Below the pieces are notes generated by a model. It was not told the origin of the DNA, searched no databases, and worked only from the letters and a program-made list of their open reading frames with translations. A DNA stretch of 64,000 bases. Source: Paraspadella gotoi (Eukaryota; Animalia; Chaetognatha). Numbering within the stretch: the stretch's first letter is position 1; the number at the start of each line of letters is the position of its first letter. Below, piece after piece: positions 1 to 60,690 of the stretch. The stretch is taken from the NCBI GenBank assembly GCA_051294375.1, contig JBJCIZ010000239.1:2245476-2309475 (forward strand), written 5' to 3'. The translations under genes were made by a program, and so were the position numbers.

Positions 1-1190
1 TTCTTCTCTCTCTCTTCCCTTACTCTCACCTAATTCTCACTCTCTCTTCCTTTCTTCTCCTCTCTCTCCCAAACATTTCTTGTGAAGTAAAAAACTTGTG
101 ACAATTCATAAATGGCGGATAGGGGCTCCCAAAATATATCCTACTTTAGAAAAGTTGTTGGTTCTCGCAAAGTTTCTTATTCCAATTTTATGAAAAAAAA
201 CGAAATCACAATGAAAAATTCTCAGGTTGTGATTTATGAACTTTCCACGCCACTTTATGTGGCGTTACCACTTCCGGTTCAAAAATAGCTGTTGTTTTTT
301 GAAAATAAATGGTTCTAGACTTAAATTAGTTATTTTTAAGCTTATTTTCTGGTTAATTATACATAGTTCTAGATTATTTTTTTATATAAATTATATGTAT
401 ACATGTATATTAGATCTCCCAGAAATATCACACATTTTTGAAAGTTGTTGATTCTTGCAAAGTTTCTCATTCCAAATTTGCTTGGAGAAAACGAATATCA
501 CCTGGACTTTCCTCGCCCTCTTTGGCGCGAACTACTTCCGGTTGAAAAAAAACACAGATTTTTGAAAGAACCATCATGCCTTTAGTAAAATTAATCAAAA
601 TATAATAACTTATAACGCTAATACTTAATTTTGTTTTGGTTTACCAATTAGAACTATTATGGGGATTATTCAAACCATTGAGCCGACATGAATTCCCAAA
701 GGGTCAACCAATGCAAAAAAAAATATATTTTTTTAAAATTTATTTATTTATTTTCTTCTAAACAATTTTTTAAATGTGGGTGGTGAATTTCTTTGAAAGT
801 CAATCTTTTGAAAATAAGAGAAAATGGTTTTTGATTTTTGAATTATGATTCATTCATTGATGCTTAAAAAAAATTTTATTCAAAAAATTAACGACTATGA
901 TTATAAACAATGAGTTTTTAGTTATTAAAAAAGGACAAGTTTTTGACTTTAATCCAAGCCTTCTTCAGCGCTAAAAAAGTGTCCGTTTTTAATACATAAA
1001 ATATAAAATTCAAAACAAAATTGAGAGAAAATATATTTTTTTATTGTTTAAAAAACAACGTTTGTGAGATATTTTGGTCTCACGCTCGCAAAATTCTACC
1101 GGAGACCCATGTTAGACAGTCGGAATGGGCAACTGTTCGAATGTTTGCCTTCGCGAGCGTGAGACAAAAAATATCTCACAGTAAAACGAA
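1..1190. repeat. Segment present again as an inverted, indel-rich copy at ~14285-15560
   Basis: 1093-1165 (attctaccggagacccatgttagacagtcggaatgggcaac...) is the reverse complement of ~14305-14372; the match continues back to position 1 (~15560). Confidence 0.85.
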
Positions 1191-1230
1191 AAACGGGTTT
1201 TCGAAGCGGGTACGTTTGAGCTCTGAGAGA

Positions 1231-1386
1231 AAAGTGAAAAAAAAAATACGGACAACCGGACATGGTTCGGCTCTGATAAGAGGCGCGAATTTGTTTCATG
1301 GAAATAAAAAATTTTCACAAGCAAATTCGCGCAGAAGAAGGCTCTCATCAGAGCCAAAACATGTCCGTATTTTTATTTTCACTTTT
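1231..1386. repeat. Short palindromic (foldback/MITE-like) element
   Basis: Arms aaagtgaaaa..atacggac..catggttcggctctgataagag..gcgcgaatttg and caaattcgcgc..ctctcatcagagccaaaacatgtccgtat..ttttcacttt are inverted copies. Confidence 0.55.
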
Positions 1387-1674
1387 ACATTTGTTTTAAA
1401 CAATAAAAAACTTGTATCTAAAACTTACCAACTACAACGAAACGAAAGAAATTACAATATAAATCTGTTTTTTGTCAATAACCGCTGACTTCCCTCGTTA
1501 TTTTGTTAAGTTAGTGATATCGGTTGATAGGTTTATTGAGATTCCCAACCTCAAAGTGGAATCACATGGCCTTTGAACCTTTCACAGTTGATATGTTGAT
1601 ATGTCTTTAAAATTCGCGGTTTTAATGCTTTTTAATGGAGACGAATAATTTATTTGCAACAACAATTTATTATT

Positions 1675-1720
1675 AGACAAACATGTTTCGGCTCACAATT
1701 TGAGCCTTCATCAGCGTCAA
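1675..1720 (-). ncRNA. Minimal type I hammerhead ribozyme motif (Penelope-like element remnant)
   Basis: Minus strand ttgacg CTGATGA aggctca aattg tgagcc GAAA catg TT|tgtc: intact core, stem II ggctca/tgagcc, 1-bp stem III with palindromic CATG, stem I gacg/tgtc. Confidence 0.8.
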
Positions 1721-2116
1721 AGTTCTTTGTGAATTACCTCACAAATTTTTCTACAAACTTCTGGAAACTTTACCCCCTCTCCTATCTCTCTTTCCCCCTC
1801 CCTCTCCCTTCTTTTGTGCCCAATTTTGGGCGACGTGCGATACCAAACTAGAATATTCATAAAAATTAGTAAAATCATATTTATTTTTAACTTATTTTTA
1901 CTTCTTTAAAGATTATTTTTGAATTTTGTTACTTTTATTCATTTCATTCAAAGTAGTTAAAATATTGGCTATAATTGTTTCTATTATTGTTATTAGCGAG
2001 GTAATGGCGCCACCCTCGAGGTTATTATAGATCAATTAACTAATAAAATATTATATTAAAAAACATATATTAATAAAAATATAACAGTACAATTATTGTT
2101 AACTTTAATTCAAAAG

Positions 2117-2451
2117 TATGCGTGGACTAAAATCCACCAACCGTTCATCAGCGGCCATTGGTTGCCGGAGGCAAGTCATTCGCCTCCCAACCCAAAGGTC
2201 CGGGGTTCTAGCCCGGTGGTTGTCTGGCAGTTAAGAGGGACGGGGCGCTTAACCCGCCTGTAACATGGGTGTGTACAGCCTGATCGAAGCTCAGGGACTG
2301 CTTATATTGAACGGGTTCTATCACTAACTCATATCACTAATTACGTGTCTCTTCATTGGTGAGCCCGACTCCGAACACAACAGCAACAACAACACTTTCA
2401 GGCGACATGCCTCACCTGGCGATGCACTTTTCCGCCCACAACACATCAGGC
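2117..2451 (+). mobile_element. TRIM family A, 3'-truncated (LTR 2117-2355, PBS, partial internal region)
   Basis: LTR tatg..tctcttca, then t-TGGTGAGCCCGAC PBS at 2357-2369; homologous to 39531-39860. Confidence 0.85.
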
Positions 2452-3644
2452 ATACTCTCTCTTTTTGAGAAAAATTTTCAACAAAGATTTAAAAAAAGGA
2501 TAGAGGTCGAGGTAAAGACAAGTTAGGTTTAGGCCAGAGATAGAGAGATAGATATTGAAAAAAAAAACAGTTTCACTGTTTAAAGAAAAATCGTTGCTTG
2601 AACTACTTCAAACTCTTTCTAATTCAAAAACGCGACCAATAAATGATAATTTTGTTATTGCTGGATTAAAGGTTTTTTTTAAGGAAAAAAAAAGAAAATT
2701 ATAAATCTGATTAACTTTTTGATGCATGGATATTGTTTCTCTTCTCCTTCACCTGGAAAAACTTAAAAATAGGGTATTCCCTCTAAAGATTTACATAAAA
2801 CTTTATGAAAAAAGGGTCTAACTTCCGGCTATAGTTTTTGAGCAAAAAAATGGTATGCCAGTAATAAAATTATTGATAAAAAAATTAAAATAGTAAAAGG
2901 TATTAAAAATTAAAACCAGGAATTGTTAAAATTAGCAAAGTCTCATTAATAGAATGATTGAAATGAAATTTTGAATATTTACAGCCAAAGTTAAAAGTCC
3001 TTTGGCTATTAAAAAACGAATCTTTTTAAGATGCAATAATTGATAAATATGATTGGATTTTTTTATGATATGGATGATAATCCTTTGTGATAAAGTATAA
3101 AGTATAACAGTATAAAGCCATTAGCAGTCAGAATAGATCAAACACTTTTAATAATACATACTTAATTGATTATCGAGCACTATTTCCGGTTAGGGACACG
3201 CCCACTATTGATGAAAACCCTTTTTTGAACTTTTTTGTCTAAATACTACTTATTAAATAATTATACTAATTGCAAGATAAGTAAAAAACAACTGCCTAAC
3301 TTTTCATTTGTAGTAAAAAGAAAAATTCCATATTGTAGTCCACGCCAACTTCCGGAAAATTGTGCGTAGGTCTAATGCAAAATCTGATTGACGACACCTT
3401 GTTAGTCGTTTTAAGTACTTAAAATTATACTAGAAACTTTACAGGATTGTGAAAAATTTCGACTGCATGGTTAAAAAAAAAGAGTGTAGCGTTTAGTCTC
3501 TCTTTAATCTGACCGTCCTGTCCTATCTTCTTTCCATCCATCGTGTTTCTTCCGTCTACCCTTATCGGGGCTGCAAACCGTTGTCTCATTATCCCAGTAT
3601 GGGCGGCGTGGCAAAATTGACTTGACCAAATAACCGTTTTATAG

Positions 3645-4710
3645 TATGTTGGACTAAAATCCACCAACCGAACACAACAGAACACAACGCAACACTTTCA
3701 GGCGACAGGCCTCAACCTGGCGAGGGCACTTTCCGCCAACAACACATCAGGCGACATGCCTCAACTTGGTGACGCACTTTCCACCAACAACAATTCACTG
3801 AAGAGACGCAACAGACTTCTCCCTACAGGAGGGGGGGATGTATGGTGGACTAAAATCCCCCAACCGTTCATAAGCAGTAAGGCGTAGTAAAATTTTTCTA
3901 AATTTAACTTTAATTAAAATTCTAAAAGTGAGGAAACGAACAACATTATATTAATGAACATTTATGTAATAAAAAATTTATACATAAATTTTACAATTTA
4001 CGCAGGTAGGCCATATATTTATACTAGTACTAAACCAATAAATTTTAAAATTTCAAAACAGTTTTTTTGTAAGTTTTTTTTTGCAGATTTGGATTCGTCA
4101 TAAAAGTTGATAAATAGAAATATAACCTCTTTTTGAAAAATTCCTTCATTAAGTGGGTCAAAAATGAGAAAAAGCTATATTTTAAGCTGAAAAATTAACT
4201 TTTTTCCACATTAAATATAGTTTTTTTAATTTTTAACCCACTTAATGAAAGAATTTTTAAAAATGAAGTTATATTTTCTTTTGTCAACTTTTTTTACGAG
4301 GAATTCCAAATCTGCAATCAAAATTAAGAAAAGCCTATTCTTGAAATATTTCGATTTTATAAGGTTAGTACTATATATAAATATAGCCTACTTGCGAAAA
4401 TTAAAAAAAATAAAATTATTTTTTTTACAAATAATGTTCACTGATGGTATGTTGTTCATAATTGACTTTTAGAATTTTCGTATGTAACTTTCACTACGCC
4501 TTAATAAGCAGCTGTTTCGCGTGCCGGAGGTAAGTCATTCGCCTCCAACCAAAGGTCCGGGGTTCTAGCCCGGTGGCCGCCTAGCAGTTTAAGAGGACGG
4601 GGCGCTTAACCGCCTGTAACATGGTGTTACAAGCCTGATCCGAAGCATCACGGGACTGCTTATTATTGAACGTTCTGTCACTAACATACAAAATAATTAC
4701 TGTCTCTTCA
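3645..4710 (+). mobile_element. TRIM family A with most of the 5' LTR and the PBS deleted, and a MITE inserted in the 3' LTR
   Basis: TSD ATAG at 3641-3644 and 4711-4714; PPT ggagggggggga-tg precedes the 3' LTR at 3841; ends tctcttca. Confidence 0.85.
3878..4503. mobile_element. hAT-like MITE (626 bp, internally palindromic)
   Basis: TIR taaggcgtagt/actacgcctta; 8-bp TSD ATAAGCAG at 3870-3877 and 4504-4511; long internal inverted repeats. Confidence 0.85.
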
Positions 4711-4758
4711 ATAGTTACTTTATTTCGGGAATTTAAATTAGTAGAAGAGACGAAAAAG

Positions 4759-5720
4759 TTTTTAGTCAGATCTGCTTATCAGCAGATCCCGACTCTATAA
4801 TTCACTTTTGTCGGTCCGTCGGTCCGCCTCCTCAATATTGTCGGGTATTAACTTATATCATGTCAGAACATCGAAATTATGATAAATTTATGCAAAAAAA
4901 ATGATGTCCGTCCGTCCGTCCGTCCGTCCATCCCACCTTAGCAAAAACACTAATTACTCGTGATTGGATGGATGGATGGAATGAAATTTTGTGTGCCGGT
5001 AGGGAAGTGTGATTGAGCTGTATATGAAGTTTCGAATGGAATTGTCGCAAGTGGAAATAGTTTAAATGGAAAAAAAAATAAAAAAAAATTTCATCTATTG
5101 AACACCAATTACTCAAGAGTGATGGGGCGATTGACTGAAATTTTGTAATTTGCGTAGGAAAGTGTGTGATTGAGCTGGAAATCAAGTTTCGATGGAATCG
5201 TTTGAGTGGAAATGAGTTTAAATGGAAAAAAACAAAAAATCTGTTTTACTAATTTGATTATGCTTCTTTTTCCTTTTATATTAAATGTAAATGAAGATGT
5301 ATTAATAAATCAAATAATTAATCAGTTAATTAATCAATTAGTCAATTAATTAATCATAATCATCATAATAATCATTAAATTAAATAGTCAATCAATCCGT
5401 ACCATCCGTCCCATCTTAGCAAAAAGCTCCTATAACTCGTGATTGGCTGGTTGGATTGGAATGAAATTTTGTTGTGGGTAGGACAGTGTGAGATGAAGCT
5501 GGATATAAAGTTTCGATGGAATCGTGCGAGTGGAAATGAGTTTAAATGGAAAAACATAAGTTGCATTTACTAAAATCTTTTTAATATATTTTAACCAATA
5601 AATACTCTATTTAATCATAATTGGATGAATAGATTTAGTTGAAATTTTGTGCGTGGGTAGGAAAGTGTGTGACGAAGCTTGATACAAAGTTTCGGTGGAA
5701 ACGTACGAGTTTAATAAAAA
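4759..5720 (+). mobile_element. Possible DINE-1/HINE-like (Helentron-associated) non-autonomous element
   Basis: Starts in a T-run with hairpin gatctgct-tatc-agcagatc, has a (GTCC)n microsatellite at ~4906-4929 and repeated internal blocks (gaaattttg..ggtaggaaagtgtg..aagtttcgatggaa); 3' end not defined. Confidence 0.4.
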
Positions 5721-5842
5721 TATGTGTCACTTTACTTAAATCTTTTTGTTTTCACGATCTTGTTAGTCCTGCAATCGTTCTTTTTTAACCCATAATTACT
5801 CGAATTAATCATAATTGAATTAAATAGATTTGAAAAGGACCT

Positions 5843-5915
5843 GCTATGTAATTATCTTGTAAGAGTGATGGAGGCCTTAAACCACAAGCCTGTCCAAAGT
5901 CAGGGGCAAGATAGC
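5843..5915 (+). ncRNA. P5-type twister ribozyme motif, family C
   Basis: gctat..gagt GA tgg aggcct T|AA acc ac aa g cctg TCCAAAGT cagg..atagc; T1 cca/tgg, T2 ac/gt, P4 cctg/cagg, P5 gctat/atagc; 2-nt deletion relative to the copy at 61615-61687. Confidence 0.7.
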
Positions 5916-6107
5916 TTATTTATTAAATGAATGGATAATTTTTTATATTGGTTGTAACAATTTCATAAAGTTTTTGACGTAATTGTGCCTGTGGGAAATG
6001 AGTTTAAATGGAAAAAAAAATAATTCACATTTTTCTTGAATCTTTTTATTTATGATTACTAATAAATGTTTTAAGTAAATAATTAATTTAATTTGAAAAA
6101 ATGATAC

Positions 6108-6490
6108 AATTTAAAAAAATTATGCAAGTTGAAAAAAAATTATGCAAGTTAAAAAAATTATGCAGTTGAAAAAAGTTTAATGCAAGTTGAGAAATTATGA
6201 TTAAAAAAATTATGCAAGTTGAAAAAATGAATGCAAGTTGAAAAATGATGCAAGTTAAAAAAATGATGCGAATTGTAAAAATGATGTAAATTGGAAAATG
6301 ATGAGTTGAAAAATTATGTGCGTGGAAAAAATGATGCGAGTTGAATAAATGATGCGAGTTAAAAAATGATGCGAATTGTAAAAATATGTAAATTGAAAAA
6401 ATGATGAGTTGAAAAATTATGTGCGTGGAAAAAATTATACGAGTTCAAAAAATGATGCGAGTTAAAAAAATGATGCGAGTTAGAAAAATT
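6108..6490. repeat. Degenerate ~17-20 bp minisatellite
   Basis: Repeated unit approx. gaaaaa(a)ttatgcaagtt / aaaaatgatgcgagtt; duplicated at ~20270-20680. Confidence 0.85.
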
Positions 6491-7432
6491 TTAAAAAATA
6501 CGTAAAGTTGCAAGTGATTTGGTTCCCAATTATCAAGATCCGTGGTATTTTAGAAACGGTGACCCTAGAAATTAGGATAGTGTTATTGTGATGCTAATTT
6601 TTTTTTCTTACAGCTTGAGAAAAAAGTTTAATCAAAAGTTAATTAAATGCGTCTTAGGTACTAAACGACGGAAAAATAACCATATTCACGGGGGGCGTTC
6701 GGTATTCACGTCTGGTTCTTAATTTTCGATAAAAGGTTTCAGAGCAATACCATATTTGGTTCCTTTTTTTGCCGGTACAAGTAACCAGGCTCGTTACTAT
6801 TTTTATCCTTGGAATCTCGAATATTTTTAAAAAAACAGGGCTAGAAAACAAGTAGAACTCTCATTAGAATAAAGTTCTTGATTTTTTTCACCTTTTATTT
6901 TATTTATCTTAATTTCTTCTGAAAACACTCGACAATACATTTTAATTTATATATTTTTATTTATTTATTTTAATTTATCTTACTGTCATGCGAAATTTAA
7001 ATGATATAACGGGTTCGTGTAGGTCTCAAACCTCCTGGTGCAACCTGGTCGGGGGTGAGCCCCCCCTTATGCAATGTCTCCATTCCGCCAAAACGACCAA
7101 GAAATTAATCAATAATCGGCAAACTGGAGATCACGAAAGGGGAGCTGGGCCAATATTGGTGTTGTAAATTCGCACCAAAACAAGACATGCGAATTTGCGT
7201 GCACATTTAAGCGCGCAGTGATGTCGCACGAGGAAACCACCTGCGCGCGTGCGAATAAAAAACTGGCGTGAAAAATCGAGGAATAGAGAAATTCATGAAA
7301 TGCGCGGGAGAAAAAGAAACATTATGCGTCTCGTGTTTTGCCTGAACAAACAAGAACCGTAAAAAAACAAACGTTCGACATGGAAAAACGACGGGGTGGC
7401 ATGGTGAATGGAGGGGAGAAGAAGGAGAAAGA

Positions 7433-7435
7433 GAG

Positions 7436-7502
<67 letters not shown>
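7433..7502. repeat. (GA)n microsatellite
   Basis: Directly visible. Confidence 0.9.
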
Positions 7503-7503
<1 letters not shown>

Positions 7504-7515
7504 GTAGGGTACAAA

Positions 7516-7880
7516 TTAAAATGAGTGAGATCGTCTGTGATGGCTGGCTTGAGTCGATCGACGGAGATTACTTCGACGCCGCGGCCCGGAATCTCTATTT
7601 GAATGTTTTTGGTCCGCGTTCACGGATGTCCGTAAGGGCCGTCGTACTGCGGTTGGAGCGCTCCGTCGAATTGTCCGTCGCGTCTGACGTAGATGAGATC
7701 GGCGTCGGCAAGCGTTTTCGGGATGTGGGAAGGCGGTGCCCATGCCAAGCGGCGGCAGAGGCCTGCATGAAGATCGTCGAGGATTCGTGAGCGGGCGGCG
7801 GCGTCAACGTCAGTTGCTGGGACGGAAGTAGCTCGCCAGGGGAGCGTCAGCATCTCGCCCAGCCTTACTTCCGCTGGAGA
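7516..7880 (-). pseudogene. Gypsy integrase C-terminal (GPY/F) fragment, frameshifted
   Basis: HIPKTLADADLIYVRRDG..LQPQYDGPY..GPKTFKIEIPGRGVEVISVDRLKPA matches the intact pol (HVFIRRGG..PYEGPF..FKIDIPGRGIETVAISRIKPA); second copy at ~21740-22100. Confidence 0.85.
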
Positions 7881-10555
7881 GTAGGGCGTTTAAAAATGTG
7901 TCTAGAGTCTCCAAAAAAGGTGTCATTTCTGTCGTATTTAAACGTTCTTTTAAGAAAAAAAACCTTGCAAAGACTTTTTCAAAACACTCGCCTCTCCCAG
8001 GGCGTCAAGTGCCACGAGCGTCAAATTTATCGATTTTTGACAAATTTTCCTTTATTTTCTTCGTGATAATAGCCAATTTTAATAATTTTTCAATGTTTTT
8101 TATATTTTATTAAAATTTATTCAAGTAAAAAAATTTTTAAGTATCTTCTCTAATGGAAAAAATTCTAACAGAACACCGAAGTGAACTCTCAAAAAGCAAG
8201 TTTTTATTTCGATAAAAATTTCATCAACTTAGGAAGTTTGCACGGCGCCGAAATCATCGCAAAAGATAAGAAAAGACAAAGGGTCGAAGATGGCAGAATT
8301 TGTTCAATTCGTCTTCGCCTCAATCAGTTTGTAAAATTTCGAGAGCGCGCATGTGGATCAACAATTACGATTTGAATTCGGACTCGCGCTCGAAACGAGG
8401 AAGAGGCTCGTCGAGAAACAAGAAATTTGATGAGAAAAACGGTGAGAACCTGGAATTTCAATTTTAAAGTAATTTGACAAAGTATTAATCTGTGATGGTA
8501 ATTAATGAAAATAAATTTTTTAAAAAAACTTTAATAGATTTCATCACTACAACTTATGACGATGATTGATTCAGAATGGTCATTCCGCGACGCTAAACGT
8601 CGAAAAATGCCGGAAACTATTTCGGTCACATTAACAGTCAGCGAGAGTGGATACGGTAGCCATCTGCGCTGGCTGAATCGGGCAGCGTCTATCGACCGAT
8701 AATCATTTTTTTTCTCTACGAGATATTCTTGTCGCGACGTGAAAGTTGACATGAAAACGGGTTTTCTCTCGCCTTCCGCTTATTGCCGAGATACGTAGGA
8801 GTTCATATGACAAGTAAAAATCTTGTAAAGGTAAAATCTTTTAAAAAATTTAAAAAAACATTAAAAACTAAAATAAAAAGTTTATAATCATATGTCTATC
8901 TCCAGGAAATCTTTAAATTTCCGGAAATTCTTTAAAATTTTCTTTGAATGGAAAAAGAGGAAGACCAGCAACGCTGGCTCACAAGGTGAAAACGTGTCGG
9001 TTGCCTTCAGTGGCCCTGGGATGGAAAAAAAAAAGTTTCTTGAGAACACTGCAATTAGCGGAGGGCACGGAGTCCTTGTTGGTTGACGCCGTGAAGTCGA
9101 TTGTCTTTTATGGGTTTAGATCGACAAAGTTATTCCCTACAATTACGAAACTGCAAAGTGTTTAATACTGGCCAGCCAGTGGGTAAATGAATAAAAATTC
9201 AAAAACTTTTTAAAATCTAGGATGAGTAGACAATTTTAATTATTCAAAATGTAGGAGCTTGTGGTAAAATTGAGGAGGCCATAGGGAAAGCGTTCGGTTA
9301 AGTTTGCCAAGTGACATGAAAACTTTGCAATTACTCATAATCCTTGAGCAAATTCCCAGGATTTTTGCAGGGGAATTGATATGCATCGACGCGACCCACC
9401 CCAAAGCAAAGAAGTTTTAAACTTGAAAACGTTCAGCGGCCAATTTGTCAAATGAAACTCATCTATAGCCCCGTCAAACTGATTTTTTTTGTCGCCAATA
9501 AAACTTTTGTTATGAAATCAATTATTATTTTAATTTTTAAAAATTTTGTCGGCTTGCCATTTTTCTTGGTAACAATTAAATATTAAGTATTTGAAATCTG
9601 TGATCTCAATTTTTCGTTTTTAGGGAAAAGTTCAAGCCAATTTAACTTTCGGTTTTAATATAATTTATTAAAAAATCCTAATACCGGTTGAGGAATGTTT
9701 AAATTAATGATTAAATATTTCAGGTAACTTTTAAGTATAACAAATAATTCAAAATTCATTCTTAATTTAGTAATTTTTTTTGAAAAACAGCTCAGAAATC
9801 GCTAAAAAATCAAATTATTTTTGATGAAAGTAGCACTTTAACGCTTTCTGGGAAAGGCCGAGATATTAAAAAAATGTACTAAAAATGCTTTTTATTTTGT
9901 AATAGCTCTAAACAAACGAAAAGAAGACACTTTTCCGTAACTCTAATGAACAATTTTCAGCGGAAAAAAATGTGTCTAGTACATAGCTATTTTAGTGTAA
10001 TCAATCTGTAGAATTAGAAGATGAAAACCAATTTTTTTGTATAGTCTCATATTCTTTTGTCAGAAATGGCGATTTTTGCAGCATAATAATAGTAACTATT
10101 AAAATGGAAGCAAACAATTGTAAAGTTAAAAACTTAAAATTATTAAAATTTAATAAAAGCCATATTAATTTTACATAATATGAATAAAGATCCATATAAA
10201 TATTCTCAGGAAATTTTTTACAATTTATATTTTAAATTAACTGTTTGTTAGCCAATATTTATTAATAAAATAATGAATAAAAAATAGACTAAAGTGAAAA
10301 AATAAAAAAATTAAAACCGGATTTAAATTCTTACAAAAAAGTTGATATAAGAAAGTATAATCCATTTTAAAAAAAAATTTCATAAGTAGGTAAAAATATT
10401 AAAAAAAAACTATTATTTTTGTTTATTTTTTAATTTTTTGCCTAAAATTATAGTTTTCTGATTTTGACCAACTTAATAACATAATGTTGATATAAAATTT
10501 TATTTTCTATATCAACTTATTGCAAAGAATNNNNNNNNNNNNNNNNNNNNNNNNN

Positions 10556-13900: not shown

Positions 13901-15560
13901 AGATAATTAGGAACGTTAATAATGCTGTCGCTACTATAGGGGCCAATATTGAACAATTAACAGCCATTTTTGTTCTTATTATCCATTGCATGTTTTTATT
14001 TGTAAAGAGCAAGGTATAGATAAACAAACCTTTTGAAATTTTAGGGCAAACAAAATTCTGATGAATTAAAGAATCCGTAACGACAAAATCCTTAAGAAAG
14101 TATAAAAAAATGGCTCGTCTTTCAGGGCCGCGGGTATCAAGCGATTTCGATATGAAAACATAGGAAGTTTTAAGCCTGCACCACGAGATTCTCCACTGAA
14201 AATTAGTCCGCTTAGCGCTGTCCCAACTATAAAAAAATATGGCATTTTTGTTTTTTGAATGATTGTACGTTTTTTTAATGTGAGGATAGGTTTTTTGTCT
14301 CAACGCTCGCCGAAGGCAAACATTCGACGTTGCCCATTCCGACTGTTTAACATGGGGTTCTCCGGTAGAAATTTGCGAGAGTTGAGATCCAAAATATCTC
14401 ACAAAACGGTTTGTTTTTTAAACAAGTAAAAAATATATTTTCTCTCAAATTTTGTTTTGAATTTAATATTTTATGTAATTAAAGGAAGCGGAACATCTTT
14501 TAAGCGCTGAAGGAAGGCTTGGATTAAAAGCTCAAAACTTGTCCTTTTTTAAATAACTCAAAAGGCTGCATTGTTTTATAATGCATAGTAGTTAATTTTT
14601 TGAATAAAATTTTTTTTAAGCCTATCAATGAATGAAAATCATAATTCAAAAATCAATAAACCACCTTTTCTGTTATTTTCAAAGAGTTGACTTTCAAGAG
14701 AAGATTCACCACCTGCACTAATTTAGAAAAATTGTTTAGAAGAAAATAAATAATGGAAATTTTAAAAAAATATATTGTTTTTTATTTTGCATTGGTTGAC
14801 GCGCTTTGGTGAATTCATGTCGGCTCATGGGTTGATATCCCGCCATAATAGTTCTAATCTGTGACGAGCCAAAACAAAAAATTAAGTATTTAGCGTTATA
14901 GCTTATTAATATTTTGATTAATGTTACTAGGGCATGATGGTGTCCGTTCTTTCAAAAATCTGTGTTTTTCTCACCGGGAGTAGTGTCGCAGCGGCAAAAG
15001 AGGCGAGGAAAAGTCCTAGGTGATATTGCGAATTTTCTCCCAGCACCAATTTGGAATGAGAAACTTTGCAAGAATCAACAGCTTTCTAAAATGTGGTGAT
15101 ATTTCTGGGCAGATCTAATATAGCATGTATACATATAGCGATTTATAAAAGAAAAAATGATCTAGAACTATGTTATAATTTAACGCAGAAAATAAGCATT
15201 AATAACGTAATTTTAGTCTAGAACCATTTTAAGTTGTCAAAAAACCAACAGCTATTTTGGTGAATCCGGAGAGTGTAACGCCAGCATAAAGTGGGCGTGG
15301 AAAGTTCAAATAAATGCAAACCTGTAATGAAATTTTTACATTGTGATATTTCGTATTTTTTTCGACTAAAGATTTAATAAGAAACTTTGCGAGAACCAAA
15401 CAACTTTTCTAAAGTAGGATATTTTTTGGGAGCCTAATCCGCATGTTAATGAATGTCAACAGTTTTTTTAACTTGCCACAAAGATGTTGGGAAGGAAGAG
15501 AGAGAGAAAGGAAGAGAGAGTGAGAATTAGGTGAAGGAGTATAGGGAAGAGAGAGAGAGG

Positions 15561-18500
15561 AGAAAAATTTTCAACAAAGATTAAAAAAAAGGAATAGAGG
15601 TCGAAGTAAAGACAAGTTAGGTTTAGGGCCAGAGAATAGAGAGATAGAGTATGAAAAAAAAACAGTTTCACTGTTTAATAAGAAAAATGGCGTTGCTTGA
15701 AACTGACTTCCAAACTCTTTTCTAATTCAAAACGCTATTGGCGACATAAATGAATAATTTTGTTATTGCTCGGAAAATTTTTAAGAGGTTTTTTTTTTAA
15801 GGAAAAAAAAAAGAAAATTATATCTGGAATTAACTTTTTGATGCATGGATATTGTTTTCTCTTCTCCTTCACGCTGGAAAAAACTTTAAAAATAGGGTAA
15901 TTCTCTAAAGATTTTACATAAAACTTTTATGAAAAAAGGGTCTAACTTCCGGCTATAGTTTTTGAGCAAAAAATGGTGATGCCCAGTAATAAAATTGATT
16001 GATAAAAAAATTAAAATAGTGAAAGGTATTAAAAAATTCAAACCAAGGAATTGTTAAAAATTAGGGCAAAGTCTCATTAATAGAATGATTGAATATGGAA
16101 ATTTTGAATATTTACAGGCGCAAAAGTTTAAAAGTCTTTGGCTATTAAAAAACGAATCTTTTTAAGGATGCAATAATTGAATAATATGATTGGAGTTTTT
16201 ATGTTATGATATGGATGCATGATATCCCTTTGTGGATAAAGTATACAGTATAAACGTATAAAGCCATTAGGCAGTCAGAATAGATCAAGGACAACTTTTT
16301 AATAATAGCATACTTAATTGAAATTATCGAGCACACTATTTCCGGTTAGGGACACGCCCACTATTGATGAAAACCTTTTTTGAACCCTCTTTTTGTGCTA
16401 AAATATCTACTTATTAAAGTTATTACTAACTATATTGCGGCCAGATAAGTAAAAAACGCAACTGCCATAAACTTTTCATTTGTAGTAAAAAGAAAAAATT
16501 CCATATTGTGTGCCACGCCAAGCTTCCGGAGCAATTGTGCGTAGGTCTAATGCAAAATCTGATTGACCGGCGACACCTTGGTTAGTCGTTTTTAAGTAAG
16601 CTTAAAATTATAGCTAGAAAAGCTTTAACAGGATTGCTGAAAAATTTCGATACTCGCACTGGTTAAAAAAAAAGAGTGGTAGCGTTTAGTCTCTCTTAAT
16701 CTGACCGTCGGCTGTCCTATCTTACTTTGCCAATCCATCGTGTTTCTTCCGTCTACCCTTATGCGGGGCTGCAAAACGTTGTCCTGCATTATACCCGCAG
16801 TAGACGGCGGCGTGGCAAAATTGGACTTGACGCAAATAAGCCGTTTTTATAGGTATGTTGGACTAAATCCAGCCCCGAACAACAACCAAGAACACAACGC
16901 AATCGACTTTCAGGCGACAGGCGCTCAACTGGGCAAGGGCACTTTCCGCACAAACAGCGATCAGGCGAGCATGCCTCAACGTTGGTGAACGCACTTCCAC
17001 CAACAAGCAATTCACTGAAGAGACGGCAACAGACTTCCTCGCTACAGGAGGGGGGGATGTATGGTGGGCTAAATGGCCCCGGCAACGCGTTCATAAGCAG
17101 TAAGGCGTAGTAGAAAATTTTTCTAAATTTAAACTTAATTAAAATTCTAAAAGTTGAGGAACGAAGCAGAACATATATTAATGAACATTTCTGTAATACA
17201 AAAATTTATAATAAATTTTACAATTGTACGCAGTAGGCCATATTTATACTGAGTGACTAAACCAATAAATTGTTTTAAAAATTTCAAAAAAGAGAAAAAA
17301 AGAAGACAGTTTTTTGTAAGATTTTTTTTGCAGATTTGGATTCGTCATAAAAAGTTTGATAAATAGAAATATACTCCCTTGTTTGAAAAATTCCCTTCAT
17401 TAAGTGGGTCAAAATGAGAAAAAGCTATATTTTAACGCTGAATAATTAACGTTTTTCCAACATTAATATATAGTTTTATTTAAAAATATTTTAACCCACT
17501 TAAGAAAGAATTTTTTAAAATGAGTTATATTTCTTTAGTCAACTTTTTACGAGGGAATTCAAATCTGGCAATCAAAATTAAGAAAAGCGCTATTTTGAAA
17601 TATTTCGATTTTATAAGCGTAGTAGACTATAGTAGTAAATATAGCCCTACTGCGAAGAATTAAGAAACATAAAATTAATTTTTTTACAAATTACGATGTT
17701 CCACTGATGCGTATGTTGTTCAGTAATTGACTTTTAGAATTTTCGTTTTATGTACTGTTCAGCAACGCGTTAATCAAGCAGCTGTTGGTGGCCGGAGGTA
17801 AGTCTATTCGCCTCCCAACCCAAGAGGTCCTGGGGTTCTAGGCCCGGTGGCCGCCCTAGCAGTTAAGAAGGGACTGGGGGCGCTTACCTGCCTGTAAACA
17901 TGGTGTTACAGGCTTGAATACCGAAGCTCAGGGACTGCTTAGTATTGAAACGGTTTCTGTCACTAAACATACAAGCAATCAATTACATGTCTCTTCAAGT
18001 AGTTTACTGTTACTTTCGGGAATTTAATAGTAGAAGAGATCGAAAAAGTTTTTAGTCAGATGCTGCTTATCCAGCAGAATCGCGACTATGCTATATTCAC
18101 TTTGTCGGTCCGTCGGTCGCGCTCTCTCAATAATTGTCTCGGTATTTAACTTCTCTTTCAATGTGCAGAACAGTTTTCTCTATCTCTTCTCCCCTGCTTT
18201 GAATTATGTCGATATACATTATGTACAAATCATGATGACCGTTTCTTCCGTTCTCTCTGTTGATCCAGTCGTCATCCCACTCTCATGCAACAAAGTATAC
18301 ACCATATTACTATTCGTCGCAACTCTGAGAGTTGATCAATGTGTATTTGGTATGATGGAATGGAATTCTGATTAGGCTCGCTCGTAGTAGAGGAGAGACC
18401 ACGCTTCTGATGATTGATTGGATAGTTATCGTCTGTGAGTTATGAATGGTATATTCGATCTGGCATATCTTGTCTCTATATTGTCGCCTGATAAGGTATA

Positions 18501-21500
18501 TATATAATTATGGTATTATAAATGGAAAAATAAAGAAAATATAAATTATAATCACTATTTGATAAACTACTGCCACACATACCAGTTTATCATTAGTTAA
18601 TTTAGTAAATATTAATCATGATTGAAGTAGATTCTGATAGGCAATATCCGTAATTAACTGCATAGAGATACCATAGAAATAATTTATGGAAATGTAAGGG
18701 TACGGGCGATTGAACAATTTCAAGAAAATTCTTTGTAGTTGTTGCACGGTAGGTAATGTAATGGTGGGAGTGGTATGCTCTGGAATAATCACAACGCCAT
18801 TCTCGATGGACATCGTTGATAGAGATAGAGATTGTAAACATAGGAAATAGATAAACAACAGAATTCAGCGAATCTGTTATATAGAGTCAGAATAGCTTAA
18901 TTACGATTTATATGAATGGCATAATGATAAATTTCTTAAATATTTTTGGTTTCCTTTTGTATAATTAAGACTGAATTGTATTCATATAAAGCATAGTGAA
19001 GGATGTATTATAATCAAATAATTAATTCAGTTAATTTTATGCAATTAGTCAAATTAATAATCAGATAATCCATCATATAATCATTAATTAAATAGTCAAT
19101 CATCCGTCCGCATCGTGGCACCTGTCATCTTCAGCAAAAGCCTCCATATACTCGTGATTGGCTGTAGTTTGATGGAATGAATTTTGTTTTTGTGGGTAGG
19201 ACAAGTGTGAGATTTGAAGCTGGATATAGAAATTGTTTCGACTGGAATCATGCTCGCTGGGCGAGTGGGAATGGAAAGTTTAATGGAAAAAAGTAAGTGT
19301 GCATTTATCGTTTAAAATGCTTTTTAATATATTTTTAACACATAAATACTCTAATTTAATCCATAATTGGATGAATAGATTTAGTTGAAATTTATGCTGG
19401 TGGGTAGGAAAAAAAGTGTGTGACGGAAGCTTGATACAAAGTTTCTGGTGGATGGAACGTCAGAGTTTAAATAAAAAAATATTGTGCATTTACGTTAAAT
19501 CTCTTTTTGTTTTCACGATCTTGTTTAACGTTGCCCTGCAATAAGTTTCACTGCTATATTTATTTAAAACTTTATCTGTCGCACACCCTCAAATTTTTAG
19601 ACATTTAACTTCATCCGTATATTCGTTATGCGCCTTTTACTTTCTTCTTCTATCGCTCGATATTCAGGCAAATAGCATAAAATTGAATTAATAAATATGC
19701 GTGATTTAGGCAGTTGAAAAGGAGCCTAGCTAATGTTAATCTATTCTGTAAGAGTGATCCGGAGGCCGATAAAACACACACTCAAACGCTATCGTCCAAA
19801 GTCAGCACAGAGACTGCAGAGGATAGCTATTATATTCCTAAATTGAATGGATAATCGTTTGTTTTTTATTACCCATTGGTTGTAAACCCAGATTTCAACC
19901 TAATAAGTTGTTGACGGTAATTGGTGGTGCCACTGCCTGTGGAAAATGAGTTTAAATGGAAAAAAATATTGCTACAGCATTTTTCCCCTCTTGAAATCAT
20001 GCTTTTTTTATACATTTAAATTTTTATAATTGTTCTATGGGATCCTTACCCTCAATTATGTTTTAAAGAAAGTTCAAATAATGATTTAATGTTAATTTGA
20101 AATCGAGAAGAGAGAAAAAAAAAAAATCGGGGATAGCCAAAATAATAATTTTTTTGTTACATATGAAGACGAAATATTATAATAAAAAAAAAAAAGAAAA
20201 CAAAAAAAAAAAATGTACAGATTTCAGAATGCCAAAAAGACGTTGAAAGAAAAAGAGAGCAGAAAAAATTAATTGCAGTTGAAAAATTTAGCAATGTTGA
20301 AAAAGTTAACTGGCAAGTTGAAGAAAATTATGCAAGTTTAAAAAAATTATGCAAGTTGAAAAATGATGGCAAGTTGAAAAACTGTAATGCAAGTTAAAAA
20401 AATGAATGCGATTGTAAAAATGATGTAAATTGGAAAAAATGATGAGTTTGGAAAAGATTATGTGGCGTGGAAAAAATGATGCGAGTTGATAAATGATGCG
20501 AGTTTAAAAATGATATGCGATTGTAAAAGATGAGTGTAAATTGAAAAAAATGAGAGTTGAAAATTATGTGCGTGAAAAAATTATATACGTAGTGTCAATA
20601 AAAATTNNNNNNNNNNNNNNNNNNNNNNNNNGTTCAAAAAATGATGCGAGTTAAAAAAATGATGCGAGTTAGAAAAAATTTTAAAAAATACGTAAAGTTG
20701 CAAGTGATTTGGTTCCCAATTATCAAGATCCGTGGTATTTTAGAAACGGTGACCCTAGAAATTAGGATAGTGTTATTGTGATGCTAATTTTTTTTTCTTA
20801 CAGCTTGAGAAAAAAGTTTTAATCAAAAGTTAATTAAATGCGTCTTAGGTACTAAACGACGGAAAAATAACCAATATTCACGGGGGGCGTTCGGTATTCA
20901 TCGTCTGGTTCTTAATTTTCGATAAAAGGTTTCAGAGCAATACCATATTTGGTTCCTTTTTTTGCCGGTACCAAGTAACCAGGCTCGTTACTATTTTTTA
21001 TCCTTGGAATCTCGAATATTTTTAAAAACAGGGCTAGAAAACAAGTAGAACTCTCATTAAGAATAAAGTTCTTGATTTTTTTCACCTTTTATTTTATTTA
21101 TCTTAATTTCTTCTGAAAAGGACCTCGACAATACATTTTAATTTATATATTTTATTTTATTTTATTTTAATTTATCTTACTGTCATGCGAAATTTAAATG
21201 ATATACGGGTTCGTGTAGGTCTCAAACCTCCCTGGTGGCAACCTGGTCGGGGGGTGAGCCCCCCTTCATGCAATGTCTCCATTCCGCCAAAACGACCAAG
21301 AAATTAATCAATAATCGGCTAAACTGGAGATCACGAAAGGGGAGCTGGGCCAATATTGGTGTTGTAAATTCGCACCAAACAAGACATGCGAATTTGCGTG
21401 CACATTTAAGCGCGCAAAGTTGATGTCGCACGAGGAAACCACCTGCCGGCGTGCGAATAAAAAAAACTGGCGTGAAAAATCGAAGGGAAGAGAAATTCAT

Positions 21501-21633
21501 GAAATGCGCGGGAGAAAAAGAAACATTATGCGTCTTGTTGTTTGGCCTTGAACAAACAAGAACCGAAAAAAAACAAACGTCGACATGGAAAAAAGAGAAC
21601 GGGTGGCATGGTGAAATGGAGGGGAGAAAGAAG

Positions 21634-21700
<67 letters not shown>

Positions 21701-24700
21701 AGAGAGAGAGAGAGATGAGAGAGAGACGTAGGGTACAAATTAAAATGAGTGAGATCGTCTGTGATGGCTGGCTTGAGTCGATCGACGGAGATTACTTCGA
21801 CGCCGCGGCCCGGAATCTCTATTTTGAATGTTTTTGGTCCGCGTTCACGGATGTCGTAAGGGCCGTCGTACTGCGGTTGGAGCGCCGTCGAATGTCCGTC
21901 GCGTCTGACGTAGATGAGATCGGCGTCGGCAAGCGTTTTCGGGATGTGGGAAGGCGGTGCCGCATGCCAAGCGGCGGGCAGAGGCTGCATGAAGATCGTC
22001 GAGGATTCGTGAGCGGGCGGCGGCGTCAACGTCAGTTGCTGGGACCGGAAGTAGCTCGCCAGGGAGCGTCAGCATCTCGCCCAGCCTTACTTCCGCTGGA
22101 GAGTAGGGCGTTTAAAAATGTGTCTAGAGTCTCCAAAAAGGTGTCATTCTGTTCGTATTTAAACGTTCTTTAAGAAAAAAAACCTTGCAAAGACTTTTTC
22201 AAAACATCTCGCCTCTCCCAGGGGCGTCAAAGTGCCACGAGCGTCAAATTTATCGATTTTTGACAATTTTCTTTATTTTCTTGTGATAATAGCCAATTTT
22301 AAATAATTTTTCAATGATATTTTATAATTTATTAAATTTATTCAAGTAAAAAAAAATTTATAAGTATCTTTAATCCGGAAAAAAATTCTACAGACCGGAA
22401 GTGACTCTCAAAAACAGTTTTATTTCGATAAAAATTTCAACTTAGGAAGTTTGCCACGCGCTCGAAATCATCGCAAAAGATAAGAAAAAGACAAAGGGTC
22501 GAAGATGCAGAATTTGTTCATCGTCTTCGCCTCAAGCTCTGTTTTTAATTAGTTGCGCCTTCAATCAGGTTTTGGTAAAGATTCGGAGCGCGCGACTTGG
22601 GATCACCCAAGCAATCTACGGGCGGATTTTGGAAACCCGGACTGTCGCGGGTGAGCTGTCGAGGAAACGAGGAAGAGGCTCGTCGAGAAAAAGAAAATTT
22701 TGGATGAGAAAAAACGGTGAGAAACTGGATTTTTTCAAACGCATTTTAAAGTAAATTTTGAAAGAGGTAAGTTATAATGCTGTGAATGGTATTTAAAATG
22801 GAAATAGATTTTTTTTACAAAAAAAAAGAAAAAAAAAAAAAACCGCTTTAAATAAGAGTGGTTTTTCAATTTCCATGNNNNNNNNNNNNNNNNNNNNNNN
22901 NNCGGTGAGACTGGATTTCATTTTAAAGTAATTTGAAAGTATTAATCTGTGATGGTATTATGAAATAATTTTTTAAAAAAACTTTATAGATTTCATCACT
23001 ACATTATGACGATGATGATTCAGAATGNNNNNNNNNNNNNNNNNNNNNNNNNNNNNNNNNNNNNNNNNNNNNNNNNGTGGATACGGTCAGCCATCTGCGC
23101 TGCTGATCGGGCACGTCTATCGACCGATAATCTTTTTTTTCTCTTACGAGATATTCTTGTCGCGACGAAAGTTGACATGAAAACGGTTTTTCTCTCGCCT
23201 TCGCTAGCGCCGTTTTTGATTTGGGACACCATCTCGGGCGTCGATCCTCACGCCGTATTCTTCTTGGAATCTCGATGACTGACTCGCGTTCTGCACTGTG
23301 CGCAATAACTGGCCAGCAGTGGGGTAATGAATAAAAATCTCAAAACTTTAAATTCTAGATGATAGACAATTTAAATTATCAAAATGTAGGAGCTTGTGTA
23401 AAATTGAGGAGGCCATAGGGAAAGGTTTCGGTTAAGTTTTGCAAGTGACATGAACTTTGCAATTACTCATAATCCTGAGCAAATTCCAGGATTTTTTGGC
23501 AGGGAATTGATATGCATCGACGCCGACCACCCCAAAGCAAAGAAGTTTTAAACTTGAAAACGTCAGCGGCCATTTTTGGTCAATGAACTCATCTATAGCC
23601 CTCGTAAACTGATTTTTTTTGTCGCCATAAACTTTTGTTATGAAATCAATTATTATTTTTAATTTTTAAAATTTTGTCCTTGCCATTTTTCTTGTAACAA
23701 TTTAAATATTAAGTATTTGAATCTGTGATCTCAATTTTTCGTTTTTAGGGAAAAGTTCAAGCCAATTTAACTTTCGNNNNNNNNNNNNNNNNNNNNNNNN
23801 NNNNNNNNNNNNNNNNNNNNNNNNNNNNNNNNNNNNNNNNNNNNNNNNNNNNNNNNNNNNNNNNNNNNNNNNNNNNNNNNNNNNNNNNNNNNNNNNNNNN
23901 NNNNNNNNNNNNNNNNNNNNNNNNNNNNTTTTAATATATTATTAAAAAATCCTAATAACGGTTTGAGGATGTTTAAATTATGATTAAATATTTCAGGTAA
24001 CTTTTAAGTATAACAAATAATTCAAATTTCATTCTTAATTTATAATTTTTTTTGAAAAACCTCAGAAATCGCTAAAAATCAATTATTTTGATGAAAGTAG
24101 CACTTTAACGCTTCTGGGAAAGGCGAGATATTAAAAAAATGTACTAAAAATGCTTTTATTTTGTATAGCTCTAAAATACGAAAAGAATGACACCTTTTCC
24201 GTAACTCTATGACAATTTTCAGCGGAAAAAAATGTGTCTAGTACATAGCTATTTTAGTGTAATCAAGTCTGTAGAATTAGAAGATGAAAACCATTTTTTT
24301 GTATAGTCTCATATTCTTTGTCAGAAATGGCGATTTTTGCAGCATATAAAGTACTATTAAAATGGAGCAAACATTGTAAAGTATAAAAACTTAAATTATT
24401 AAAATTTTATAAAAGCCATATTTAATTTACATAATATGAAAATAAAGATCCATATAAATATTTCAGGAAATTTATTTACAAATTTTATATTTTATTAACT
24501 GTTTGTTAGCAATATTTATTAATAAATAATAATAAAAAATAGACTAAAGTGAAAAAATAAAAAAATTAAAACCGGATTTAAATTCCTTACAAAAAGTTGA
24601 TATAAGAAAGTATAATCCATTTTAAAAAAAATTTTCATTAAGTAGGTTAAAAATATTAAAAACTATTATTTTTGTTTAATTTTTTAATTTTTAGCCTAAA

Positions 24701-24790
24701 ATTATAGTTTTTCTGATTTTGACCAACTTAATAACATAATGTTGATATAAAATTTTATTTTCTTATATCAACTTATTGCAAAGAATGCAA
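15561..24790 (+). repeat. Error-rich direct duplicate of ~2468-10530 (includes copies of the TRIM-A/MITE, the minisatellite and the integrase fragment)
   Basis: Colinear identity with many single-base insertions in 15.5-20.6 kb and several N gaps; likely an uncollapsed haplotype or a gap-fill read. Confidence 0.9.
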
Positions 24791-27530: not shown

Positions 27531-28028
27531 GAAAAAGGGTCATTCAAATCAACTTCAAAATATGCCAAAATGGAGTACATTTGATGCATTCTACGCCATT
27601 TTATATCGGTTTTAATTATATCAAACGAAAAAGCCAATCCATCTGATATTTTTTATGAATTTTTTATTACTGAATTAGAAAATGGAATAGAGAGACACTT
27701 TTAAATTTCAACTTATATCCTTGAAAATGAAACGTTTTTAAACTTTAACCCTGAATTCTTCCTAACTGGAACGCGTTTATCAAAATGTCTCTTTATTAAA
27801 TTTTTACAAATGTTTTTAATATTGCTAATCAAATTTTTAAATCAATGTTATTGTAGTCGTTTAGGCTGCAACTCTTCAAATTCAGTGTAGATTAATTGTA
27901 GCTCGAATTTCTTTACCATCTATTAAACTGAAGATTTTGGTCATGACTGGAAAACCAACAGAGTAACAAGATTAATTGTTTAATTCTCCCCTTCTAAATT
28001 ATCCCATACGTGTTTTAACTTCTTACCT

Positions 28029-28750: not shown

Positions 28751-29468
28751 ACTTACCTAGAATTTTTTAACAACCAGATTGAAAAACAAATCTTTAAGAA
28801 ATGTGTTTACCAATTTAACTTAACAATTTTGTTATTTCTCGATTTAAAAAAAATGATTGAAAACAGAATGTTTAGTAAACATTGCTTACATATAAATAAA
28901 AACTTATTTTTTTGTGATTACTGATGACTATAATGTATTTCTCGATATATTAGCTCTAATACATCAATGATTACGTATTGTTATGCTGAATGACCTTTCC
29001 TCTTGAGAGACTCGAGTGGCTCGTCCACTGTAACCAAGATGGAGGTGACGACGTTCACCGAGTTTGAGTTTGTCTTCCGCTGGGTGAGGCAAATCTGTTG
29101 ACGCGGTGCTTGCCTCTGCTGAAGGGGGGTTTGATCTTCCGATGACCGAGGCGAGTTTTGTATTTATCTCGAAAATCATTTGGAAAAGTTTTTCTATTTG
29201 CATTTAGGTAGACGTTGCAGATGTCGAGGCGGCGGCGTCGTGGAACGCGTCGTCTCGGCCGGCCACAGTAGACAGGAAGCACAAAAAGAAACATAGGGCA
29301 AAACAAATGAAAGTGTAGCGGTATATTCACACCGCTTCACGTCAATCATCGTTCAGACTATCCCATTCGTTTTTAATTGTTTGAATTTTAAGGTACTGAA
29401 GAGGCTGGTTTTACAGGGCGCCACACCCGCAGCGGTGTCACCTCGTGGCGACAGCGAGACAGCATGTT

Positions 29469-29547
29469 CATGTAGTCCAGAGCTTTGGATCTGGCAGTAG
29501 GCCCATGCCTACAGGCGGGTTACCCGGTCCATCTCACTTTCTACATG
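29469..29547 (-). ncRNA. P5-type twister ribozyme motif in the TRIM-B 3' LTR
   Basis: catgtag aaa gtga GA tgg accggg T|AA ccc gcc [tgtagg catggg cctact] g ccaga TCCAAAGC tctgg a ctacatg. Confidence 0.75.
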
Positions 29548-29550
29548 ACA

Positions 29551-29614
29551 ACCTCAGGGCTCGAACCAGGGACGCACATTGGGATGGTGCATTAGTCCAC
29601 TGAGCCATTGAGGC
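29551..29614 (-). promoter_or_regulatory. tRNA-derived Pol III cassette in the TRIM-B 3' LTR
   Basis: gcctcaa TGGCTCAGTGG..gcacc atcccaa tgtgc..GGTTCGAGCCC tgaggt: A box, B box and acceptor-like stem. Confidence 0.8.
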
Positions 29615-31222: not shown

Positions 31223-31448
31223 TATGGTGGACTAAAATCCACCAACAGTTCATCAGCGGCAATTGGTGGCGGAGGCAAGTCATTCACCTCCCAACCCAAA
31301 GGTCTGGGGTTTTAGCCCGGTGGTCGTTAAGAGGGATGGGGCGCTTAACTCGCCTGTAACACGGTGTTACAGCCTGATCCGAAGCTCAGGGACTGCTTAT
31401 ATTGAACGGTTCTGTCACATTAACATAACAATTATCACTGTCTCTTCA
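31223..31448 (+). mobile_element. TRIM-A solo LTR
   Basis: tatggtgg..tctcttca with TSD AATT on both sides; 8-bp deletion in the P5 5' arm. Confidence 0.9.

Positions 31449-60626: not shown

Positions 60627-60690
<64 letters not shown>

Follow-up and report, generated by a model that had tools for sequence, protein, structure and literature searches.

Repeat family C, one of three families that share a ribozyme design in the window (the whole 64,000-nucleotide stretch of Paraspadella gotoi DNA analyzed here), is an abundant repeat containing a real, unusual twister-type RNA motif whose cleavage is predicted from its sequence. The motif has a type-P5 twister fold, carries a palindrome in place of helix P1, and lies about 60 bases from a fixed 3′ end. 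In the favored reading, given a probability of about 0.55, the RNA is likely to cut itself, best as a pair. The repeat itself is then likely what remains at the 3′ end of a truncated Penelope-type (Naiad-like) retroelement, or else a non-coding element parasitic on one. That family C carries a functional twister-type ribozyme is, as a claim on its own, highly probable.

Structure and covariation of the family C core

The window, from a noisy assembly, was repeat-rich animal-type DNA that contained zinc-finger genes as well as Ty3/gypsy elements. A preliminary description had placed a permuted core at 5.8 kb (+) and 61.6 kb (-). Both were found with the pairings it had given, namely: P2 ACC/G-A-GT; T2 AC/GT; T1 CCA/TGG; and P4 CCTG/CAGG. 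P5 arms were present as well (Table 1). The active-site bases were conserved in family C: the putative general-base G, the following A, U^A-A, the U of loop L4, and A-A. Stems P4 and open P5 were also present, with likeness between families judged by eye. P2 had three base pairs and a bulge, compared with the usual four base pairs, and was counted as present. The predicted cut in copy 2 was 61655/61654 (- strand). The core had no intramolecular, loop-closed P1: the 6-nt linker permits at most one base pair, and a 6-bp P1 could arise only from two copies pairing.

Table 1. Positions of family C copies, parts of the copy 1 core, and family A and B elements in the window.
Feature	Position	Strand	Remark
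Family C copy 1, 5′-truncated, inside another tandem-like repeat	5837-5966	+	
Family C copy 2, 5′-truncated, flanks low-complexity and ATT/TAG-rich	61565-61711	-	
Noisy duplicate of copy 1 within a duplicated segment	19714-19969	+	no independent insertion
Family C copy 4, decayed	53267-53414	-	E 4e-12
Possible stub of the C 3′ end, 22 bases, beside an (AT)n run	60249-60270	-	weak, E 0.15
Family C core, copy 1	5863-5904	+	read off sequence
Family C core, copy 2	61626-61670	-	read off sequence
Copy 1 P5 5′ arm, partner 5906-5914	5852-5860	+	
Copy 1 P2 3′ strand G-A-G-T, bulged base A5864	5863-5866	+	
Copy 1 putative general-base G5867, A5868, T1 strand TGG	5867-5871	+	roles after the available parts of PMC5408937, PMC11662667
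Copy 1 palindromic linker AGGCCT, 6 bases, standing where helix P1 would be	5872-5877	+	
Copy 1 U^A-A, predicted cleavage 5878/5879	5878-5880	+	analogy with Rfam RF02684 alignment
Copy 1 P2 5′ strand ACC and T2 strand AC	5881-5885	+	
Copy 1 P4 CCTG/CAGG and loop L4 with T1 (CCA), A-A, T2 (GT)	5889-5904	+	
Copy 1 P5 3′ arm, then AT-rich tail to the fixed 3′ end (…TTTCA-T)	5906-5966	+	
Family A two-LTR mini element, PBS, 4-bp duplication ATCT, same ribozyme design in each LTR	31575-32221	-	
Family B two-LTR mini element, PBS, 4-bp duplication GTAC, same ribozyme design	29397-30037	-	
Further A/B element locus	39531-40172	+	
Further A/B element locus	54311-54544	-	
Further A/B element locus	31223-31448	+	

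In the profile search called for in the preliminary description, the Rfam Twister-P5 model matched 5864-5904, with a score (28 bits) under the gathering cut-off of 37.6; E was 0.089 when the whole window was searched and 0.00042 when 301 bases were searched. Family A and B copies had no Rfam twister match whatsoever. Because family C lacks a loop-closed P1 and did not reach the Rfam score, it was filed as a type-P5 variant. A descriptor demanding P2, P4, T1, T2, GA, and UAA found three sites in the window (copy 1 and two family A copies), while 60 shuffled windows gave three in total. The minimum-energy folds of single copies were no better than those of shuffles (z 0.9, 0.6, and -1.1), and this kind of folding is uninformative here.

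The type-P5 twister ribozyme is said to have been described by Roth et al. in 2014. Family C had in common with the type-P5 model (Rfam RF02684) the strand order, the active-site G and A, U^AA, T1, T2, A-A, P4 with its G-C closing pair, and P5. It differed in having a 6-nt palindrome with at most one intramolecular pair instead of a normal P1, a 3-bp bulged P2, an A-U pair in T2 where G-C is usual, its sub-threshold score, and its location in an animal repeat.

Nine cores were aligned for covariation: three from family C, five of about ten from family A, and one from family B. P4 and P5 were excluded because the alignment register differs. Altogether, 94% of 107 cells were paired and six of the 12 pairs were altered on both sides (0 of 500 shuffles; slid controls, two pairs at most). 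T1 (3 bp) was 96% paired with two pairs altered on both sides, T2 (2 bp) was 94% paired with one such pair, and P2 was 93% paired, also with one. The ribozymes of families A, B, and C are probably homologous modules on unrelated carriers, so this covariation stands on three lineages only. The compensatory changes previously reported were thus recovered, while their independence was reduced to those three lineages.

Outside the core, family C had no significant likeness to family A or B, as 1101, 1806, 2089, and 2074 of 3000 shuffles scored equally high in four comparisons. Descent of the family C flanks from the family A LTR was not supported by the shuffle test. ARAGORN found no tRNA in the window. 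The earlier statement that the repeat had no tRNA or LTR homology to families A and B held for the parts compared.

The score below the Rfam cut-off and the unremarkable fold energies are what a chance resemblance to twister would produce. Such a resemblance is nonetheless extremely improbable given the E value on 301 bases, the descriptor counts in real and shuffled windows, the covariation, and the behavior of pattern matches elsewhere. One viral and 25 metagenome loci fit a degenerate core pattern, and since none of these 26 passed the pairing test for P4, T2, and P2 they were taken as chance matches. The 19-base family C motif had one match in sequence collections, which was bacterial and without P4. 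The A/C pattern had none in viral contigs.

Copies, ends, and variation of the family C repeat

Three independent family C copies were present in the window: copy 1, copy 2, and copy 4. The preliminary description had also counted three, having included the 19.7-kb duplicate and missed 53267-53414 (-). The 3.5-kb stretch around the 19.7-kb copy duplicates the 5.8-kb locus with 787 bases inserted, 66 deleted, and 104 mismatches, an indel-rich pattern typical of long-read error. Because it sits in this error-like duplicate, the 19.7-kb copy is not independent. Positions 1-10530 and 14273-24786 form large insertion-rich duplicated segments, which are probably uncollapsed noisy reads of one locus.

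Damage to the copies exceeded the single small indel each had been assigned. Copy 1 lacked 2 nt, and copy 2 had a 3-nt loss in a P5 arm besides an extra C in L4. The extra C is probably an assembly error, since the contig of this locus in run X1 stops matching at 61636, two letters over. In copy 4, P4, P5, and the linker were broken and T1 read CTA/TAG; this paired change happened once, in a decayed copy, and could be due to chance. The letters of copy 4 were identical in contigs of public runs X1, X3, and X4. Its likeness to the upstream letters of the family reached about 53440 by eye, and these upstream letters had no second occurrence in the window.

The surroundings of the copies differed. 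The host of copy 1 was a tandem-like repeat of about 180 bp (4900-6070) with a (CCGT)n run nearby, and about 45 bases of the host unit seem to be missing there. This repeat is reminiscent of DINE-1/Helentron repeats. Copy 2, which is intact, lay antisense between frames of a probable gene at 60314-62143 (+) that had no Pfam match; one of these frames carried an eh1-like FSIDAIV motif. Copy 4, which is decayed, lay in sense just past a zinc-finger frame at 53438-54235 (-), and these orientations comprise two cases only.

Nine public runs of one organism from three studies contained part of 61450-62200, none of them on record as RNA. Run X9 may be RNA, and its coverage of family C and of copy 4 was given no weight. 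Runs X3 and X4 belong to one study and may be the source of the assembly. Contigs matching 61480-61800 numbered 1346, 4444, 4058, and 346 in four runs. Peak summed depth was about 544,000 in X1, 3.2 million in X3, and 2.0 million in X4, with 19, 192, and 95, respectively, for a single locus. Summed contig depth is not copy number, as overlapping short contigs can inflate it up to 31-fold, and it was used only as a range: a floor of roughly 500-900 and a ceiling of 17,000-28,000 copies. This points to hundreds to thousands of family C copies.

Within the four runs, 74, 143, 147, and 26 contigs departed at 61565 into long, dissimilar AT-rich DNA, indicating a fixed 3′ end (…TTTCA, then T). After the 3′ ends came this T and then unique AT-rich flank. 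At the other side, 39, 65, 63, and 18 contigs continued past 61711 with shared letters, indicating that copy 2 has lost its 5′ part. Thus, the unit of about 85 bp given in the preliminary description was too short; the repeat measured at least 150 bp, covering at least 61565-61711, and other copies extended further 5′. The 5′ end of copy 1 lay about 20 bases later than that of copy 2. The 5′ ends differed among the copies in the window, a comparison of only three independent copies. The 5′ end of the family was not reached with these contigs, including those aligned to copy 4.

The twister reading and the existence of a third repeat family were both supported by the covariation, the unrelated flanks, and the very many copies. 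The mobility also claimed for this family is inferred from its dispersal. Family C very probably propagates by retroposition.

Variation among copies was recorded from the contigs of the four runs. The preliminary description had named a many-copy consensus that breaks T1, T2, or P2 as evidence against a twister, and the contigs showed no such break. No letter in 61640-61668 varied at 3% of depth or more, a span that includes the putative general base, T1′, the linker, UAA, P2, T2, and most of the P4 5′ strand. The P2 bulge base 61669 varied between A and T at 4-21% of depth, and the P5 wobble at 61624 changed from G·U to Watson-Crick A-U at 3-21%. A few G residues varied at about 2-3%, among them two in P4 (61627 and 61639) and the one that opens the P2 3′ strand (61670). 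The tail also carried listed variants, and loose contig ends showed a CATAG variant of the CAAAG loop. Variant counts near 61635 and 61671-61682 are biased, because the indels of copy 2 itself thin the coverage there.

This variation bears on whether family C is a dead ribozyme relic, a passive passenger of a SINE-, MITE-, or Helitron-type repeat whose core is uniform only through the youth of the family. In its favor, depth-weighted variation mostly mirrors recent subfamilies, and copy 1 sits inside a different repeat. Against this, the variation fell at unpaired or wobble sites and spared the catalytic ones. Old copies also exist, namely copy 4 and the 408 of 1346 X1 contigs that were less than 90% alike. 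Neither a tRNA head nor terminal inverted repeats were seen in the known parts of family C. A relic is very unlikely.

The palindromic linker in place of P1

The preliminary description took the consensus for a complete core and overlooked the palindrome. In each of the three families, the linker from T1′ to UAA consisted of six self-complementary bases (AGGCCT, GGCGCT, and ACCGGG) that permit one pair within one molecule. Self-duplex energies of the linkers were -9.1 (family C), -8.3 (A), and -8.1 kcal/mol (B). Equally strong hexamers numbered 54 of 4096, or 54 of the 1408 with at least four G/C.

Copy 1 was predicted to form P4 with a probability of 0.01 alone and 0.99 as a dimer, in which intermolecular P1 had a probability of 1.00. 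In the predicted dimer the two strands exchange P5 arms, each keeps its P4 hairpin, and the linkers join in one helix; this dimer lay 11.3 kcal/mol under two monomers. The folding program ignores pseudoknots, and P2 probability was 0 throughout. When the copy 1 linker was shuffled, 21 of 179 shuffles also formed an intermolecular helix and 17 of 179 gained equal energy. In families A and B the predicted probability of intermolecular P1 was 0.00 in three copies. The decayed copy 4 kept neither P4 nor the palindrome.

With the first helix replaced by a six-base palindrome, family C would likely cut best with two copies paired, and this cutting would likely help a mobile element to spread. Dimer-assisted cutting as such has a little less than an even chance. 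A precedent comes from axolotl hammerheads, where a one-pair stem is combined with a palindromic tetraloop and dimers cut better (PMC7229834). More broadly, the type I hammerheads that act as dimers in salamander retrozymes and Penelope-like elements share with family C a helix reduced to one pair and a many-copy non-coding animal repeat (PMC7229834; bioRxiv 10.64898/2026.07.22.740005); in these hammerheads the palindrome is the tetraloop (PMC7229834). They differ from family C in ribozyme class. No tandem array of family C was seen in the window.

Alternatively, family C may be an ordinary monomeric “mini” twister for which a one-pair P1 and a tetraloop suffice, with the palindrome serving RNA dimerization in packaging or nothing at all. 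Twisters without P1 cut at near wild-type rates (PMC5408937), so that a family C monomer may cut. Imperfections in P1 and P2 are tolerated among about 1,950 natural twisters, whereas changes to the pseudoknot or catalytic bases are not, a result that concerns type-P1 twisters only (PMC11662667). The lack of a predicted intermolecular P1 in families A and B also agrees with a monomer. On the other side, three families carry three different palindromes, palindromes were read by eye in both Naiad linkers, and copy 1 alone was predicted to misfold. A purely monomeric twister is possible, at clearly less than even odds.

Parent element and proposed propagation

The parent of family C has an even chance of being Penelope-type; an LTR element, present as solo LTRs, is rather unlikely and any other parent decidedly unlikely. 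A Penelope-type 3′ end is favored over a solo LTR because the same ribozyme design can be read at a published Naiad 3′ end. In the available Naiad supplement (Craig et al., 2021; PMC8557442), two consensus 3′ ends among the matches listed showed, by eye, this permuted fold, and their linkers contained palindromes. In one of them, the record that precedes the header Naiad_Mphi, P2 was TCC/G-C-GA (3 bp and bulged, as in family C), and T2 AC/GT and P4 CCTG/CAGG matched those of family C, again by eye. Five strings taken from family C or A did not occur in this supplement, and a sixth matched a coding stretch only; none of the family C strings tried occurred there.

Naiads are 5′-truncated, prefer (TA)n, and reach high copy number, and canonical hammerheads are reported absent from them in the available text (PMC8557442). 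Family C fits this habit with its AT-rich sites, a 3′ end that is fixed, and 5′ ends that are ragged among the three independent copies. By our reading, family C and Naiads have in common a permuted fold with palindromic linkers, in one case with like P2, T2, and P4, as well as 5′ truncation, a fixed 3′ end, AT-rich sites, and high copy number. The Naiad linkers differ in being longer, having two self-complementary stretches, and sitting about 130-190 bases before the end. Linkage of family C to a Naiad frame was not seen, and no Penelope-type (GIY-YIG plus RT) frame was among the 125 window frames scanned. Tandem copies, as in pseudo-LTRs, were absent from the window, and the contigs gave only single joints turning back.

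Families A and B are mini LTR elements with a tRNA head that resemble Helenus, with a twister-type fold added in each LTR. Family A had about ten LTRs in the window, with solo and paired copies bearing the 4-bp duplications ATAT, AATT, and ATCT; family B had two LTRs and the duplication GTAC. Both had a PBS after …CTCTTCA, a purine tract, and tRNA-like boxes ahead of the ribozyme. The PBS resembles tRNA-Trp. It also resembled the PBS of a Ty3/gypsy element at 43407-48228 (-), which had an open 1203-aa pol frame (RT, RNase H, and integrase) and a purine tract like those of families A and B and is a possible helper of both. A broken relative of this element lay at about 25200-27650 (-).

Additional observations concerned the mini elements. 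The integrated 5′ ends (39531, 31223, 54544, and 30037) started with TA or TC, two bases inside the TG after the 3′-LTR purine tract, which is unusual for LTR elements. Family A LTRs had a 9-base inverted repeat (39551-39561 and 39719-39728) enclosing the tRNA-like part and the ribozyme. LINE-type fragments with endonuclease and RT Pfam matches occupied 36947-39332 (+), with a family A element close behind.

Like plant LTR retrozymes (PMC4918200), families A and B have a putative ribozyme in each LTR, a twister-type fold where the plant elements have a hammerhead. Two short LTRs, a PBS, a purine tract, and a 4-bp duplication are common to families A and B, plant LTR retrozymes (PMC4918200), and Helenus TRIMs (PMC10886601), and Helenus also has tRNA-like boxes. 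The word ribozyme is absent from the available text of the Helenus paper, and five L4 strings found no twister in its supplement among the matches listed (PMC10886601).

By extension, family C could be the LTR, perhaps solo, of a third mini LTR element like families A and B. It would be an animal equivalent of the plant LTR retrozymes, moved with the help of a Ty3/gypsy element, and cuts in both LTRs would release a unit that circularizes. In favor, this design occurs in families A and B within true LTRs that have a PBS, purine tract, and 4-bp duplications. The TTCA at the end of family C is shared with their LTRs, and the tail that follows P4 is 61 nt in family C and 58 nt in family A. The Ty3/gypsy element in the window has a PBS and purine tract similar to theirs, and the plant model is described in PMC4918200. 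However, the copies of family C in the window showed neither a PBS nor a purine tract, and no LTR pair or target duplication was found at any of them. Solo LTRs would lack the first three, and a 4-bp target duplication is unreadable where 5′ ends are missing. Further, the 5′ end is missing from two of the three independent copies, which break off at different points, and the family C flanks have no homology to family A or B. The commonest loose ends past TTCA were unique AT-rich DNA, among which a lone PBS junction contig could hide. No tRNA-derived A or B boxes were found in the 45 bases before P2, and the true 5′ part of family C lies beyond. This LTR scheme is unlikely.

For the favored Penelope-type parent, a mechanism can be modeled on hammerhead retrozymes (PMC4918200; PMC7761336; PMC6765202; bioRxiv 10.64898/2026.07.22.740005). 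A transcript with two family C copies in tandem would swap strands, the two linkers would form one shared six-pair P1, and both sites would be cut at U^A; that strand swapping proceeds through to cutting has somewhat under an even chance. The unit released would be joined to a circle. Reverse transcription would begin about 90 bases downstream of the cut, pass back through the rejoined ribozyme, and halt at variable points. By analogy with hammerhead retrozymes, this scheme would account for the intact ribozymes, the single 3′ end, and the ragged 5′ ends.

A more general proposal is tentative: that animal retroelements share an unpublished twister subclass active only as strand-swapped pairs through a palindromic P1, so that cutting needs two copies in a transcript. 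The module would have been passed among Penelope-type ends, mini LTR elements with a tRNA head, and an abundant non-coding repeat, with circular RNA intermediates in all.

The available full text, which covers neither subscription papers nor Repbase, contained no twister in TRIMs or Naiads and no animal LTR retrozyme with a twister. Within the same scope, which also excludes the supplements of twister papers, no palindrome-linked twister was found; those supplements may hold such sequences. Twister is not mentioned in the part of bioRxiv 10.64898/2026.07.22.740005 that was covered, and only three circular permutations of twister are given in the available part of PMC10085705. Twisters are tied to 5′ ends of non-LTR elements in a remark in PMC7761336 and in PMC8501958, and a 2020 review mentions unpublished truncated twisters at RTE 5′ ends. 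The Schistosoma Perere-3 twister variants (PMC8501958) resemble family C in tying a twister to animal retrotransposition. Those variants trim the 5′ end at which they sit, and the target site supplies the rest of P1, whereas the predicted family C cut is internal and near the 3′ end.

Trimming the 5′ end of a Schistosoma retrotransposon is the one described job of a twister in animal genomes that was found in print. Here, three unrelated repeats in a single genome, of which two are mini LTR elements, carry one altered twister design, which also matches Naiad ends by eye. Should the palindrome make two copies a requirement for cutting, twisters would have arrived at the solution used by dimeric hammerheads. 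If true, this would give a testable account of RNA processing by these elements, and Rfam-based scans would be missing a large pool of animal ribozymes.
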